A stretch of 64,000 bases of DNA from Escherichia coli (lineage in GTDB: Bacteria; Pseudomonadota; Gammaproteobacteria; Enterobacterales; Enterobacteriaceae), in NCBI RefSeq assembly GCF_030384885.1, contig NZ_CP128613.1; one strand, written 5' to 3'. The stretch's first letter is position 1. The number at the start of each line of letters is the position of its first letter. Positions 10,400 to 26,400 of the stretch are shown here, piece by piece. The translations under genes and the position numbers were made by a program. The notes beneath the pieces were generated by a model. It did not search any database, was not told the DNA's origin, and saw only the letters and a program-made list of their open reading frames with translations.

Positions 10400-11542
10400 A
10401 TGACAAATAAACACCCATCATTGTTTTCTCCTTTTATGCTGACAGAAAAAATAAAGCTACGTAATCGTATCGTTATGGCCCCTATGACGACCTGGTCAGC
10501 GAATCCTGATGGAACCATCTCTGAGCAAGAACTCGAATTTTATAAACGCCGCTCACAAAATGTTGGTTTAGTAATAACAGGATGTACCTATGTCACGCCA
10601 AGCGGCATTGGGTTTACTCATGAATTTGCCGCATATGACGACCGTTTCATTAACAGCCTTGAAAAGTTAGCAGCGGCAGCCCAAAGTGGGGGTGCTCCGG
10701 CTATTTTGCAGATTTTCCACGCCGGTAATAAAGCCATCCCGGAGCTTGTACCAAATAACGATGTTATTAGTGCCAGCGCATCAAGCGTAAAATCTGGTGA
10801 CTTTATGAAGAGAGTGGTACAAAGCAGGGAAATGACTGAAAACGAAATTCAGGAAACCATTAGAGCATTCGGAGATGTCACAAAAAGGGCGATTAAAGCA
10901 GGTTTTGATGGCATTGAACTTCATGGTGCGCACGGATTCCTTCTACAGAATTTCTTCTCCCCTCTATTTAACCAGCGTAATGACCGATGGGGAGGAGATC
11001 TCGAAGGACGTATGCGCTTCCCGCTGGCCGTATTACAGGAAGTAAAAAATGTAGTCTATGAATATGCGACAAAGCCCTTTGCCATCGGTTACAGAATATC
11101 TCCTGAAGAATCTGCAACAGGGGGGCTGCGGATAGAGGATACTTATAAACTCCTTGATCGGCTCATTTCATCCGGTATTTCGTATATACATACCTCGCTG
11201 GTCAGTATTAACGATAGCTACCCTGTTGAGTCGCCAAATGGCCCCCGAACTATTGAATTGATTTTAAATCATATTGCAGGCAGAGTGCCGGTAATCGCTG
11301 CAGGTAAAATACGCACACCGTCTCAGGCTCAAGAAGCAATTTCCACTGGCCTGCCACTTGTTGCGATCGGTAAAGGGCTGGTGATAAATCCAGAATGGGT
11401 GACTTTAGCTGAATCAGGTAGAGGCCATGAAATTCAAACAACCCTTAATCCACAACTTGTTCCTGAATTAACCATTCCGGATAAACTATGGGATCAAATT
11501 CAGACATCGAAAGGAACTGGCTGGTTTCCGTTAATGGATTAA
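10400..11542 (+). CDS. NADH:flavin oxidoreductase (Old Yellow Enzyme family)
   Basis: 380-aa ORF; RIVMAPMTT.. and HGAHGFLL motifs typical of OYE/NemA-type reductases. Confidence 0.75.
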   Translation: MTNKHPSLFSPFMLTEKIKLRNRIVMAPMTTWSANPDGTISEQELEFYKRRSQNVGLVITGCTYVTPSGIGFTHEFAAYDDRFINSLEKLAAAAQSGGAPAILQIFHAGNKAIPELVPNNDVISASASSVKSGDFMKRVVQSREMTENEIQETIRAFGDVTKRAIKAGFDGIELHGAHGFLLQNFFSPLFNQRNDRWGGDLEGRMRFPLAVLQEVKNVVYEYATKPFAIGYRISPEESATGGLRIEDTYKLLDRLISSGISYIHTSLVSINDSYPVESPNGPRTIELILNHIAGRVPVIAAGKIRTPSQAQEAISTGLPLVAIGKGLVINPEWVTLAESGRGHEIQTTLNPQLVPELTIPDKLWDQIQTSKGTGWFPLMD

Positions 11543-12014
11543 ATATCTATTACTCTCCCGAGAGTAAAACTATCAAACCAATGAGTAACCGATACAGCCT
11601 CGCAAATTCTTTCAGATAATTAACCCGTCACTGCGGCACGTTCTCTCATAAGGCGTGCCTGCTGTGTAATCCAGTATGTATCCGGCATACTTGACGGTTT
11701 AATAGAACTCAATTCCTTTCCCAGGTTACCAACAACGATATCTTGTATAACACCCCAGGAGATACGACATTATGATGAGATGAGGTATGCTCCTCAGCGC
11801 CAATCAACGCCAGGGCTGGGCCAGTTTTGAGATCAGACTCATTCCCGGACTGACTTCAGGCGACATATATCAATGACGTTGGGGCAATAAAAGATAGCCG
11901 ATGTAATACATCTATTCAAATTTGTGATACATGTCAAAAAATTGGTTGACCAAACTCGTTATTTATATAAGGGCACTTACGAAGTGCACTCTTTTTTAAA
12001 GCGAGGAAGTACCA

Positions 12015-12116
12015 ATGAAAGAGAATAAAGTACAGCAAATCAGTCATAAACTGATTAATATCGTTGTTTTTGTCGCAATTGTAGAATACGCCTATTTATT
12101 TCTCCATTTCTATTAA
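12015..12116 (+). CDS. ykgR: small membrane protein (33 aa)
   Basis: ATG at 12015 with GAGGA RBS; MKENKVQQISHKLINIVVFVAIVEYAYLFLHFY; below ORF-track length cutoff; position relative to ykgM fits recollection of ykgR. Confidence 0.4.
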   Translation: MKENKVQQISHKLINIVVFVAIVEYAYLFLHFY

Positions 12117-12452
12117 TAACGGCAATAAACTGTTCACTTCAGTGATATTTAAAATATGCATCCTCTCCCTTTTTTTTAAGTAATTATTATATTCGTGGGG
12201 GAGGAATACACGCTGTCAGGTAATCAATCAAACTGCGATAAATCATCGGCCAGTAAAGTGGAGATAGCCTCCATTCTCGAAAAATTCATACTCTCAGCGA
12301 AACCATCATCAATCACTCATCCAGGCGTTTATGGGAGCGTCGCCAATGGCTGCTAACAATGCCAGACTTCCCCGTTGCCGAAATTCCACATACCACAAAT
12401 GGTCACAGGAATTGGGTGTTGAAATGATTCGGATGAGCATGTATCTTTACGG

Positions 12453-12468
12453 TTATGTTATAACATAA
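12453..12468 (+). promoter_or_regulatory. candidate Zur box (palindrome TTATGTTATAACATAA) overlapping ykgM promoter
   Basis: 16-bp perfect palindrome 10 bp upstream of ykgM start; resembles Zur operator core; ykgM-type L31 paralogues are classically Zur-repressed. Confidence 0.55.
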
Positions 12469-12477
12469 CAGGTAAAA

Positions 12478-12744
12478 ATGATGAAACCCAATATCCATCC
12501 TGAGTATCGTACTGTGGTGTTCCATGACACCAGTGTTGATGAGTACTTTAAAATCGGCTCGACTATCAAAACAGACCGTGAGATTGAGCTGGATGGCGTA
12601 ACGTATCCGTACGTGACAATTGATGTCTCTTCGAAATCGCACCCGTTCTATACAGGGAAGCTGAGAACAGTGGCATCAGAAGGAAATGTTGCACGGTTCA
12701 CCCAACGTTTTGGTCGTTTTGTTAGCACGAAAAAGGGGGCGTGA
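12478..12744 (+). CDS. ykgM: ribosomal protein L31 paralogue (zinc-independent type B)
   Basis: 88-aa [27 protein letters not shown]...; lacks the Cys zinc ribbon. Confidence 0.9.
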
Positions 12745-12884
12745 TGAAAGTCCTTAACTCTCTGCGTACCGCAAAAGAACGCCATCCAGACTGTCAGATT
12801 GTGAAGCGAAAAGGACGGCTGTATGTGATTTGTAAATCTAATCCACGTTTTAAGGCCGTTCAGGGACGTAAGAAAAAGCGTTGA
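12744..12884 (+). CDS. ykgO: ribosomal protein L36 paralogue (46 aa)
   Basis: ATG overlapping ykgM stop (TGATG); [46 protein letters not shown]; not in ORF track (below cutoff). Confidence 0.85.
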
Positions 12885-12935
12885 TTCATAATTCGCCGGA
12901 TTAACGATATTTGTCTGATTAATAATCAGACCGGA

Positions 12936-12974
12936 TTAATGTTGGTGTATTGATTACACCAACATTAATTTTCC
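12936..12974 (+). terminator. rho-independent terminator after ykgMO
   Basis: Perfect 14-15 bp stem ATTAATGTTGGTGTA/TACACCAACATTAAT followed by TTTT. Confidence 0.6.
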
Positions 12975-13206
12975 TGGAAATATATTCTTTAAGTTCATTT
13001 AAAGCCAACTGCCTGACGTTTCTCTCTGAATATTCCATTATATTCATGTTGATTTATTGACCAACTTCTCCCCTGTATGCTGGTATCAACTCTCTTTTAG
13101 ACTGAACAAGCCACTCCGCCCCCTCCCTTTGCGGAGCAGCCTGCATTTACACTCAAACTGTTAAGATGATAAATGTGGTAAATCTGTTGGTACTAACATA
13201 AAACGT

Positions 13207-13437
13207 TTACGCCACAGGAACAGCCTGATCCACCGGTAACCCCATCGCCGACGTTCGAGTGCCAGTTAGAGTAACGCGCACAGATGACTGCACGCAGTGC
13301 CCTGTCAAAGAGGCCATCGTTCCTGTGACAGCTGGCAGCCTTCGTTTAACTTCACTTAATTTGGCTCTTGGGGGGCTTACCGAACAGATGACGTAGTCAC
13401 ACCTATTCAATTTTTCACCACTTATTGGAGTAAACAC
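13207..13437 (-). CDS. hypothetical small protein (possibly ykgL)
   Basis: 76-aa ORF between ykgO and ecpR; no recognisable motif; assignment by position only. Confidence 0.3.
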   Translation of the reverse strand: MFTPISGEKLNRCDYVICSVSPPRAKLSEVKRRLPAVTGTMASLTGHCVQSSVRVTLTGTRTSAMGLPVDQAVPVA

Positions 13438-13900
13438 CCATAACCATTTTGTGCGGCATGTTAATCCATTAAAACACCTTATTGATTGTCAAATCCTCTT
13501 TAATGATGGCCAATAATAGTTTTATGTTCTATTTATTATCATTAAAACTTGTTTTTTTACTAGTCGAGCACAAAACGCATTAAGACTATTCCTAACACCT
13601 CAGGGCAAAGTTCCTGGCTAATATAAAATGTAAGTAAGAATTGAACGTTATATTGCCAATAACCTTATGAAACTGAATGTCTTTTTCTTCTTATCAAAAA
13701 AGCAATATTTTCATTTTTAGTAAATATTGACTTAACCATGGAATTCCTTTTCTGTTCACATATTGACACTCATCAGGAAAAAAACATAAATTTAAGCCCA
13801 ATCGAAAATAATTAAAACTTAATCTCGTTTAACCTATATTGATATGTGCTACGTATCTTATTTACTTCCGATTTACTAACAACACTGAATGTACCTGTAA

Positions 13901-14512
<612 letters not shown>

Positions 14513-23282: not shown

Positions 23283-23322
23283 AAGCCGAATTCATGACGT
23301 CTTCATCACATGAATTCGGCTT
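23283..23322 (-). terminator. hairpin downstream of the 447-aa cargo gene (possible terminator)
   Basis: Perfect 14-bp stem AAGCCGAATTCATG/CATGAATTCGGCTT, 12-nt loop, about 30 nt past the stop codon; no clean U-run. Confidence 0.35.
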
Positions 23323-23351
23323 ATGCATAATACTAAGTTGGTTTTATTAAG

Positions 23352-24695
23352 TCATTTCTTTGCCGCGCTTTTATTGCACTTCTTACAGCCTTCAATCAAT
23401 TTTTCAGTTATTATATAATAATAAGGAATGTAAATGTTTAACCCGCAAGTTTTAATCGAATCGAAAGCAAGAACTTTCACAATGGATTCTTCTCCATCTT
23501 TCTCCATTAGCAATATATCACTTAAAGGCAAATCATTAGGATTGTAAATCCTCACATCGCCAGGCTGTCTTTCATAGGCTTCGATGTCATCACCTGGTTG
23601 GCCATAGGCTAAATGAGTGGCTTTAATCCAGTTTATTGGTTCAGCATTTTGACACCAGGAGATTATTTTTTCTAATTTTTCAGGTGTGTAAGCTTTTACA
23701 TAATCTCCATGTTTTTCACATCTACCTAGTTCTGAAAAATGGCCCAGGGTGTATTCATAAGAATAATCACCAGCAGTCAATGGTAGTCTAAAGTATTGCT
23801 GAGGCAATGCCTTCTGGACTTTGGTTTTACTCAGCAAATTAAAGGTGATATCATAAAGTTGATATAGACAAACACCCTCTCGATCTGGATATCCATAAGG
23901 CTTGATGTCAGAAAGCATCTCAATATCAGAATTATAAACACTTGCATAATCATCACTTCCAAACATGAAAAAACCTTTTGATAGAATGAATATTGCATTA
24001 GGAAGAACGTTTTTTTCAAAATTCTGCGAGTGAGTTTTTATTTCTTGTACTATGTCCATCCAATCCATATCAGTATCATAGGCGAAGATAATTCCAAAAC
24101 CATTAGTCTGAATTCTCTCCTCTGAATGTATAAATATGTTCTGATTTATACCATGTTTCTTTAGTTTTTTGAATGAGCGGATATTTTCGAAAGCACTTTT
24201 CAGTTCTTTTTTTGTTAGTTTTGACTTAACCTGAATCACACCATAGCAGTACTCCACAGGTAAAACCTCAAAAATTTCCTGTCGCTGCATAAGCGAAAAT
24301 GAATTAAAAGCATCATAAAAAAGAATGTCGATTTCATTACTGAGATGTCCTGAGGTTGACGCTACACGGACACTTGATTTTGAGATGGCATAGCTTTGCG
24401 GTAAGAGTTTATTTTCATTGAAAAAGCATCTTAAGAGTTCCTCTCTGACAGTACCAACATCTCTTGGATGCTTAATATCTTTCGATATTTCAAAATCTTG
24501 AAGCATTTTCCTCTGTAAGTGAATGAACTCCCTTTCAAGACCATAAAATTCTTTATCTTTAGATCTCAGTTTGCTTGCACGAGAAACTTGATCGGATATC
24601 CATTCCTTTGTGCGAGACTCTCTCTCAGCAAAATCATCACGTTGTTTTTTTACAGCACCGGTCAAGCGTTTTCTTGTGTTTTCATTATCGGACAT
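23352..24695 (-). CDS. hypothetical protein, low GC; possible PD-(D/E)xK / Mrr-like nuclease fold
   Basis: 447-aa ORF; motif ..SNEIDILFYD..(about 25 aa)..YGVIQVKSKL reminiscent of a D...(E/Q)xK nuclease core; AT-rich relative to neighbours; no confident family assignment. Confidence 0.55.
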   Translation of the reverse strand: MSDNENTRKRLTGAVKKQRDDFAERESRTKEWISDQVSRASKLRSKDKEFYGLEREFIHLQRKMLQDFEISKDIKHPRDVGTVREELLRCFFNENKLLPQSYAISKSSVRVASTSGHLSNEIDILFYDAFNSFSLMQRQEIFEVLPVEYCYGVIQVKSKLTKKELKSAFENIRSFKKLKKHGINQNIFIHSEERIQTNGFGIIFAYDTDMDWMDIVQEIKTHSQNFEKNVLPNAIFILSKGFFMFGSDDYASVYNSDIEMLSDIKPYGYPDREGVCLYQLYDITFNLLSKTKVQKALPQQYFRLPLTAGDYSYEYTLGHFSELGRCEKHGDYVKAYTPEKLEKIISWCQNAEPINWIKATHLAYGQPGDDIEAYERQPGDVRIYNPNDLPLSDILLMEKDGEESIVKVLAFDSIKTCGLNIYIPYYYIITEKLIEGCKKCNKSAAKK

Positions 24696-25214
24696 AAATT
24701 AACCTTAAGTTGATAAGTTTTGTGGTGAATTTATAAAGCCTGAGGGATAAACATTTATAGTCTATAAGTTACTATTTATTTGAGATAGTAAGCCAATTTT
24801 ATTAGATGAAGAAACGTTCATAACCTCCTCAACTACGTTTCAATCGGCAACATCGGAGAAGTACACTTTGACAATATATAGCATATTGAAGCAGCTGTAA
24901 CTTAGAGCGCGTACACTCAAGATTTCCCGCTGCGGTGATGGCGGACGACTGCGTTTGATAACTCATTTCCCTCACCAACTATCGGACCTGTTCCTGATTG
25001 ATTATCACATTATAATGTGAGCAATGTCCGCTCCTAGCACATAGCAGTTCTAGAGACAATGGCGTAAAGTCATGGAGAATCGGTGGGAGGATATTCAGTT
25101 TCATTCATGCCGAAATACGGTAAAATCTATAACAGATAGAAATCATTCAATATTCGCACTATCAGAAGCTGGCCAGCCAACCGCGCACGATTTTGCATAC
25201 GACATGCTACGGTT

Positions 25215-25814
25215 TCATTTATCTCCGACCGGAAACTTCTTATACAGTGTCGATACACCAACATCATAGATGATCTCCACCTTCTGGCGAGGAACGCCTG
25301 ATGCAATTAATCGCCCGGCCTGCGCCCTTTGTTCTGGTGTAAGTTTGGGACGACGTCCACCAATTCGTCCCTGTGCGCGAGCAACTTCCAGTCCAGCTTT
25401 TGTTCGTTCAACAATCAGTTCTCGTTCCATTTCAGCCAGGGCACCCATCACATGAAAGAAAAAACGCCCCATCGGTGTGCTGGTATCAATAGCATCCGTC
25501 AGGCTGCGAAAATTAACGCCACGTTCGCGCAACTCCTCAACCAGAATGACCAGATGGACAAGCGTGCCGGGACCGGGTTTATTCAGCGCTTCAATCAGGC
25601 GATCGCGCTGGTCAAAGCAGTCATCTCCCACCACATAAGCTGTGATGGACGGGCGGAAAGTGACTTTTCCCAGATCTTCGGTATAGGGCTTGTCGCGGTT
25701 CGGGTATTCATGTGTTTCCACACGGCGACCGGTTCCCGCACTTTCTTCTTCAACCTTAAACGGCACACCTCGAAATGACGCATCCTGAAGCCTGTCTTTC
25801 CACGTCATATACAC
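25215..25814 (-). pseudogene. chimeric ORF: C-terminal half of a Pin/Gin/Hin-family serine DNA invertase fused to a Mu-N-like (DNA circularisation protein) N-terminus
   Basis: C-terminal about 110 aa (VEELRERG..FRSLTD.IDTSTPMGRFFFHVMGALAEMERELIVERT..GGRRPKLT..) matches invertase C-terminus and HTH; catalytic Ser-containing N-terminus missing; first about 85 aa (WKDRLQDASFRGVPF..GRRVETHEYPNRD..EDLG) resembles phage DNA_circ_N proteins. Confidence 0.6.
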
Positions 25815-25869
25815 TCCGAAAATAAAAAAGCCACCTATTAGAAGGTGGCCTTGTAATGAATTTTATTAA

Positions 25870-26400
25870 TTAGCGAGTCAGAAACAACGAATCTTTATAC
25901 TTTTGCTGTTGTTCATTTAAATACTTAGCTGTTTCATCGCTGGCAAATGGAAATATTACCGTATTTTTAGGCATGGTAATTTCTTTTTTGTCCAGCGTCA
26001 GAGTAAACATAGGAACATACTGAGCAGAGTAACGCACCGCAGAAACGAGCTCTAGTTTAGACTCTTCAATAACACTTAAATTATCCAGGCTAACTTTCTC
26101 TTCATCTTTTTTCTTTGACGCATTTAAAGTTTTTATTACTTTATTTAATTTCTCCTGAAAATCCTCCTTAAAGTTTTCAGGATTGCCGTCGACAACAAGA
26201 ATCTGTTCACCCTGATTATCTGGAAAAATAATCTTTGCACTTATCAATTTATTTTCTTTATAAACATCACCAAGTTTTATGGCTCCTCCAGATAACTGAA
26301 TAATATGTTCATCTTTAAAGGAGATGTTGCCAGAGATTATGAGAGATGAAAAAATAGCCGCTGCTCCAAGAATTACACTTGCTGTGATATAGCCTTTCAT
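25870..26400 (-). CDS. hypothetical membrane-anchored/secreted protein, low GC
   Basis: 176-aa ORF with N-terminal hydrophobic segment MKGYITASVILGAAAIFSSLIISG; Lys/Glu-rich; AT-rich. Confidence 0.5.
   Translation of the reverse strand: MKGYITASVILGAAAIFSSLIISGNISFKDEHIIQLSGGAIKLGDVYKENKLISAKIIFPDNQGEQILVVDGNPENFKEDFQEKLNKVIKTLNASKKKDEEKVSLDNLSVIEESKLELVSAVRYSAQYVPMFTLTLDKKEITMPKNTVIFPFASDETAKYLNEQQQKYKDSLFLTR

Follow-up and report, generated by a model that had tools for sequence, protein, structure and literature searches.

The ykgM-ykgO operon of Escherichia coli, encoding the type B ribosomal proteins bL31B and bL36B behind a Zur operator

The ykgM-ykgO locus

The region analysed is almost certainly the E. 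coli ykgM-ykgO operon, preceded by a Zur operator that is switched by zinc and encoding products that replace the ribosomal proteins L31 and L36. None of the findings conflicts with this reading. It lies within a window of 64,000 nucleotides (64 kb), this being the whole stretch of DNA that was analysed. The RefSeq annotation at the locus comprises ykgR, ykgM, ykgO, a ykgL pseudogene and ecpR. The interval to which attention had been drawn by an original prediction, made from the sequence without database searches, was 12448-12884; the predicted -35 and -10 hexamers of the promoter are situated just upstream of it. The operon, its Zur operator and the roles of both proteins are already established in E. 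coli, leaving little discovery value, and the locus is better regarded as a positive control, in which an operator and a 46-codon gene were recognisable from raw sequence. Studies of the K-12 operon and of its PL31p Zur operator reportedly include those of Panina (2003), Graham (2009), Hemm (2010), Gilston (2014), Aseev (2020) and Rasmussen (2022).

The segment 12000-13200 is 100% identical to that of E. coli 2013C-4282 and is present in 5086 of 5426 complete E. coli genomes. A megablast match to this segment was absent from 340 of the 5426, and a match to the 44-nt promoter/operator segment was absent from 567. A few of the E. coli matches (12-14 places) were located on plasmids. Position 12450 is a C in the present sequence and a T in most of the matching genomes, MG1655 included. 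The window is not collinear with 2013C-4282 (NZ_CP027579.1) beyond the ykgM locus, and the coordinates expected there fall in proB. Further along the window, only three E. coli genomes cover at least 80% of 23300-25900, which points to a mosaic or mobile segment.

The Zur operator

The 16-mer TTATGTTATAACATAA at 12453-12468 occurs only once in the 64-kb window. It had been described originally as a perfect palindrome of 16 bp, which is indeed present, but its full extent is 18 bp: with one complementary base on each side it forms the perfect palindrome GTTATGTTATAACATAAC at 12452-12469, to which no strand is assigned. This is identified as the Zur operator from its agreement with the Zur skeleton and with a weight matrix, together with its conservation.

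Palindromy by itself was dropped as evidence, since the counts in the window are near chance expectation. Two perfect 16-bp palindromes were present where 0.98 were expected and one perfect 18-bp palindrome where 0.24 were expected; moreover, when three mismatches were allowed, TTATGTTATAACATAA was matched in 23 of 100 shuffles. Such figures are those that would be anticipated if the repeat were an AT-rich inverted repeat arisen by chance and without a regulatory role, as is the occurrence of an unrelated second perfect palindrome at 25005. The latter (25005-25020, TCACATTATAATGTGA) is the only other perfect 16-bp palindrome in the window; it is intergenic, lying between a gene for a DUF6602-domain protein and a gene for a pinE-type recombinase, and is not Zur-like by the matrix.

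The weight matrix comprised 18 columns and was derived from the K-12 znuC, zinT and pliG operators, with the ykgM site left out. The training operators were located in the K-12 znuA-znuC intergenic region and in the regions upstream of zinT and pliG by means of RNNNYRNNRYNNYRNNNY, the structure-based skeleton of a site bound by two Zur dimers (Gilston 2014, PMC4219657). On this matrix 12452-12469 scored 25.65 of a possible 26.78 bits, a value exceeding those of the training sites on their own matrix (21.9-24.4 bits). The next-best score on either strand of the 64-kb window was 11.4 bits, 14 bits under the ykgM site, and the maximum obtained over 200 simulated 64-kb windows was 19.2 bits, 6 bits below it. 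The Zur-type operator proposed in the original prediction is therefore upheld by the matrix check. The matrix revealed no further Zur site, either between ykgR and ykgM or in the rest of the window, all other scores being 11.4 bits or lower.

Agreement with published descriptions of Zur sites was also evident. The skeleton RNNNYRNNRYNNYRNNNY gave a single match in the ykgM upstream region, at the same 18 positions, with 18 of 18 positions self-complementary. The 19-bp gamma-proteobacterial Zur box AATGTTATAWTATAACATT matched the operator at 15 of 19 positions in each of two registers 5 bp apart, an arrangement predicted by the two overlapping Zur dimer sites in the crystal structure, and the 23-bp Zur consensus GAAATGTTATANTATAACATTTC matched it at 16 of 22. 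The related regulator Fur, through which the operon would respond to iron instead of zinc, was considered in the light of these values, given that the two regulators recognise AT-rich inverted repeats that are related in architecture. However, within 12431-12490 the 19-bp Fur consensus was matched at no more than 10 of 19 positions, as against 15 of 19 and 16 of 22 for the Zur forms, and the reading as a Fur box was dropped on this basis. A central TATA separates Zur boxes from Fur boxes (Gilston 2014, PMC4219657), and deletion of zur alone derepresses expression 560- to 1000-fold (PMC4219657, PMC7297116). Control of the site by Fur is consequently most improbable.

Orthologous loci

A search of genome contigs with YkgM yielded 80 loci from other species, the sources being Escherichia albertii, Citrobacter, Kluyvera, Enterobacter, Klebsiella, Salmonella, Serratia, Brenneria, Photorhabdus, Vibrio, Pseudoalteromonas and others. 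A Zur-type box was present in all 80, scoring 14.8-25.6 bits on the ykgM-free matrix. The box began 28-44 nt before the ATG in every case, and 30-32 nt before it in 72 of the 80. When the 80 distinct upstream sequences were anchored on the box, the operator columns carried a mean of 1.59 bits per column, while the flanks carried 0.17 (far upstream), 0.22 (spacer) and 0.42 bits per column (leader). In other genera the right arm of the operator drifts (e.g. AACAAAAC) with the Zur-contact positions kept, such that self-complementarity ranges from 10 to 16 of 18. A homologue of ykgO with 74-100% identity was detected by tblastn directly 3' of ykgM in 80 of 80 loci, the gap between the two genes being -4 to +18 nt in all except one. 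Most of the ykgO orthologues begin MQV rather than MKV.

These data bear upon the origin of the palindrome by chance, which has a vanishingly small likelihood in spite of the counts given above. The Zur matrix score stands 6 bits over the best of 200 simulated windows; all 80 loci, drawn from several genera, retain the box in position and sequence but not its flanks; and both binding and repression have been published for the identical K-12 sequence. What sets the operator apart from chance is its specific sequence and its position, not palindromy.

Promoter and leader

A promoter consensus scan identified TTGAAA-17-TATCTT, with 9 of 12 matches, as the predicted ykgMO promoter on the plus strand, the -35 hexamer TTGAAA lying at 12419-12424 and the -10 hexamer TATCTT at 12442-12447. 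The TTG of the -35 is kept at the same offset from the operator across the 80 distinct upstream sequences, at a mean of 0.66 bits as against 0.17 further upstream. At the position of the -10, to within 1 nt, a TAnnnT motif is found in other genera in forms that include TAGACT, TAAGAT, TATTAT and TACGAT. Consensus and cross-species position together support the assignment of TTGAAA and TATCTT, from which the transcription start site is predicted. An alternative extended -10, TGtTATAAC, is present at 12456-12464, inside the Zur box. No mapped transcription start for E. coli ykgM was found in the papers on the operon that were consulted.

The predicted -10 ends 4 nt before the operator, which in turn overlies the predicted +1 and the early leader. 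The palindrome had originally been placed over the ykgM promoter; this is accurate with respect to the predicted start but not to the hexamers, neither of which it covers. A published Zur footprint of approximately 30 bp would also reach the -10. Downstream of the operator, a Shine-Dalgarno-like AGGT read from the sequence is situated at 12470-12473 (plus strand), 8 nt separating the AGG core from the ykgM ATG (12473-12480), and a GAGG or AGG element occupies the same place in most of the orthologous leaders. Reckoned from the predicted start, the ykgM leader would be approximately 27 nt in length.

With TATCTT as the -10, the palindrome would be part of the transcript and could form a 7-bp hairpin at the very 5' end of the mRNA, directly before the Shine-Dalgarno sequence. 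The palindrome might then act mainly as RNA, such a hairpin serving to stabilise the mRNA or to modulate the access of ribosomes. The fold was calculated at -7.3 kcal/mol with z = -1.72, and 16 of 200 shuffles were as stable; it is not significant, and a hairpin in the 5' untranslated region was dropped as the main role. Furthermore, the drift of the right arm among orthologues, where the Zur contacts stay, fits a protein site and not a stem. A principal role as RNA is accordingly very unlikely, and the 5' hairpin would be at most a side effect alongside the binding of Zur to the same sequence.

The gene products

The first gene of the operon, ykgM, occupies 12481-12744 on the plus strand and encodes the 87-aa, type B zinc-free protein bL31B, an identification based on the RefSeq CDS, the NCBIfam model NF002462 and identity to a chain of the ribosome structure 6I7V. 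Two adjacent in-frame ATG codons are present at 12478 and 12481, of which the latter is the RefSeq start. Of the two, E. albertii and other genera retain just the one at 12481, in agreement with RefSeq, and the mechanical ORF start at 12478 is, on this comparison of sequences, probably not the one in use. The stop codon is the TGA at 12742-12744.

YkgM scored 122.9 bits on NF002462 (type B L31), for which the cut-off is 86. The two equivalog models for type A, NF000612 and NF001809, gave scores under their cut-offs of 70. Over residues 1-68 the sequence of YkgM coincides with that of chain D7 of 6I7V, which bears the name '50S ribosomal protein L31 type B', and the whole protein is identical to K-12 YkgM. 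Alignment with K-12 RpmE placed T, V, S and S in YkgM at the positions of C16, C18, C37 and C40, respectively. YkgM contains no cysteine at all, and 78 of the 80 orthologues are likewise cysteine-free.

The second gene, ykgO, lies at 12744-12884 on the plus strand and encodes the type B protein bL36B. As had been predicted, it begins at the ykgM stop through a TGATG junction, in which the stop codon and the ykgO ATG (12744-12746) share one base, and it runs for 46 codons to a stop at 12882-12884. The original statement that ykgO had been missed calls for a refinement. The gene was absent from the list of open reading frames on account of a length threshold, yet it is annotated in RefSeq and there is no gap in the annotation. 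In ORF listings ykgO appeared only with a 20-aa minimum, and then with 47 aa, the in-frame GTG at 12741 being taken as its start; the default minimum of 60 aa would drop it. A cut-off of 60 aa thus hides real genes, namely ykgO and its neighbour ykgR. The latter (12015-12116, plus strand) is a RefSeq-annotated gene of 33 codons for a small membrane protein, scoring 78.1 bits on NF041474 where the cut-off is 40.

Shortness, by which ykgO falls under the usual ORF thresholds, is what might lead the 46-codon frame to be taken for a spurious one that is no gene. This possibility can be dismissed. YkgO scored 91 bits on NF002021 (type B L36, cut-off 70), which argues for a real gene, and over residues 1-45 it does not differ from chain C5 of the ribosome structure 6I7V, a modelled chain that is named L36 2 in that entry. 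In addition to the RefSeq annotation, homologues that are 74-100% identical and syntenic accompany ykgM at each of the 80 orthologous loci. The protein is identical to its K-12 counterpart (b4506), and its detection after treatment with a chelator is attributed to Hemm 2010 as cited in PMC7297116. The 46-aa product is hence an L36 paralogue, as originally proposed, in view of the model score, the identity to 6I7V and the homologues in 80 of 80 loci.

The zinc ligands of RpmJ, C11, C14, C27 and H33, correspond to H14, C17, C30 and F36 in YkgO; two of the four are changed and the fourth is lost. Among 43 distinct orthologues, H14, C17 and C30 are each conserved in 42-43, and the fourth position is Phe in 42 and Tyr in one. 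The zinc ribbon of YkgO is therefore broken, with three potential ligand residues left, and a metal-free state is suggested by the literature. It is conceivable, though improbable, that bL36B still binds metal, either weakly or with a ligand provided by rRNA or water, or that its two cysteines serve as a pair in a redox function; zinc-free would then be too simple a description of the L36 half of the switch. With both type B models passed, the RpmE cysteines lost and the RpmJ ligand set broken, the two products conform to the zinc-sparing pair of ribosomal paralogues that the original prediction had named.

The 3' end of the operon

Two hairpins follow ykgO on the plus strand between 12913 and 12971, as determined by RNA folding, the second of them running into a U tract. 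The first (12913-12931) includes the 19-bp palindrome GTCTGATTAATAATCAGAC and the second (12933-12971) has a stem of 17 bp. Folding of 12880-12985 gave -35.2 kcal/mol with z = -6.06, and 0 of 200 shuffles were as stable. Within 12880-12971 (plus strand), three successive hairpins follow the ykgO stop. Position 12931 is C here and T in K-12, so that a G-C pair becomes G-U and pairing is kept. A consensus terminator scan left the hairpins after ykgO unflagged; Aseev 2020 shows a terminator downstream of ykgO, according to the legend of Fig. 2A. On the strength of the modelled fold, the hairpins are probably the intrinsic terminator of the operon.

In an Rfam search covering 11400-14100 (E <= 1), the sole match was to mir-15; it fell on the terminator hairpin with 18 bits, where the gathering score is 57, and is ascribed to chance. 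No known RNA family is present in this region. The 3' end of ykgL (12919-13146, minus strand) overlaps the hairpins after ykgO on the opposite strand. In strain 2013C-4282, which is 100% identical here, this gene carries an internal stop and is annotated as a pseudogene, but it is intact in K-12. No NCBIfam match was obtained for ykgL, and it is doubtful that it is a real gene.

Regulation and function

Zur binding, the size of repression, incorporation into ribosomes and repression of rpmE are known from the literature on K-12; the K-12 experiments apply directly to the present locus because the operator, promoter, Shine-Dalgarno sequence and both proteins are identical. At the K-12 L31p operator, zinc-loaded Zur (Zn-Zur) binds as a dimer of dimers, and the apparent Kd determined by EMSA was the lowest of four operators (PMC4219657). 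Repression of ykgM by Zur in vivo amounts to 560-fold (PMC4219657), and a zur mutation or the addition of TPEN raised expression of a ykgM-lacZ fusion almost 1000-fold (PMC7297116). Within ribosomes, L31 and L36 are exchanged for YkgM and YkgO (PMC9825181, PMC7873864), and YkgM (L31p) represses translation of rpmE, the gene for L31 (PMC9825181). The operon has been put to use in biosensors for zinc and calprotectin (PMC10410751).

A mechanism for the switch can be outlined from these reports and from the arrangement of the locus. When zinc is sufficient, Zn-Zur would occupy 12452-12469 as two dimers on overlapping RNNNYxxxRNNNY half-sites offset by 5 bp. Since the predicted arrangement places the operator directly after the -10 and over the transcription start, Zur bound there would block RNA polymerase, presumably by steric exclusion, and the operon would be essentially silent. 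Upon exhaustion of zinc, Zur would release its metal and leave the DNA, and one mRNA with a short leader would then be made. The one-base overlap at TGATG suggests translational coupling, through which translation of the two genes would be tightly linked. The products, bL31B without cysteines and bL36B with a broken zinc ribbon, would take the place of the zinc-binding L31 and L36 in the ribosome. This replacement would lower the zinc demand of the cell and free zinc, with rpmE translation repressed by YkgM at the same time.

Comparison with known systems

The ykgM-ykgO operon of K-12 (b0296-b4506) is the closest known system. The operator, -35, -10, Shine-Dalgarno sequence, start codons, TGATG junction and both proteins are identical, and the local gene order ykgR-ykgM-ykgO-ykgL-ecpR is the same. 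Over 12011-13180 the present sequence differs from that of K-12 MG1655 at 58 places, comprising 56 substitutions and two 1-nt indels, the difference nearest to the operator being the C/T at 12450. The two strains diverge upstream of ykgR, where K-12 has ykgP, an eaeH pseudogene and IS3, whereas genes for a LysR regulator, an alpha/beta hydrolase and an NADH-dependent flavin oxidoreductase are found here at 10400-11542 and further upstream. A strain-variable junction thus adjoins the conserved ykgM-ykgO operon.

Within E. coli, the operators of znuA/znuCB, zinT and pliG share the same 18-bp frame, each with 14 of 18 identities to the ykgM site and with the core TTATAACA. The mechanism is also the same, a dimer of dimers binding to overlapping half-sites at znuCB, zinT and pliG (PMC4219657). 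Full self-complementarity (18 of 18) is exhibited by the ykgM site only, the znuC, zinT and pliG operators having 10-12 of 18. The ykgM site differs further from the other E. coli operators in carrying G for A at position 6 and AA for mostly T at positions 16-17.

In Yersinia pestis, a Zur box precedes ykgM at a similar distance (-34 to -16) in ykgM-rpmJ2, and ykgM is likewise followed by the L36 paralogue (Li et al. 2009, PMC2706843). A DNase footprint of Zur and repression in vivo have been demonstrated for the Y. pestis ykgM site (PMC2706843). The Y. pestis box, GATGTTACATTATAACATA, is of the classic 9-1-9 form and is reported to lie over the -10 (PMC2706843), unlike the E. coli ykgM site, which is an even, compact 9+9 palindrome situated just after the predicted -10. 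A more distant parallel is provided by ytiA of Bacillus subtilis, which encodes a type B L31; according to summaries in PMC2706843 and PMC7873864, this cysteine-free paralogue is repressed by Zur and displaces the zinc-binding RpmE at low zinc. The ytiA gene differs from the E. coli operon in being governed by a different, Gram-positive Zur box and in having no L36 paralogue as a partner in its operon.
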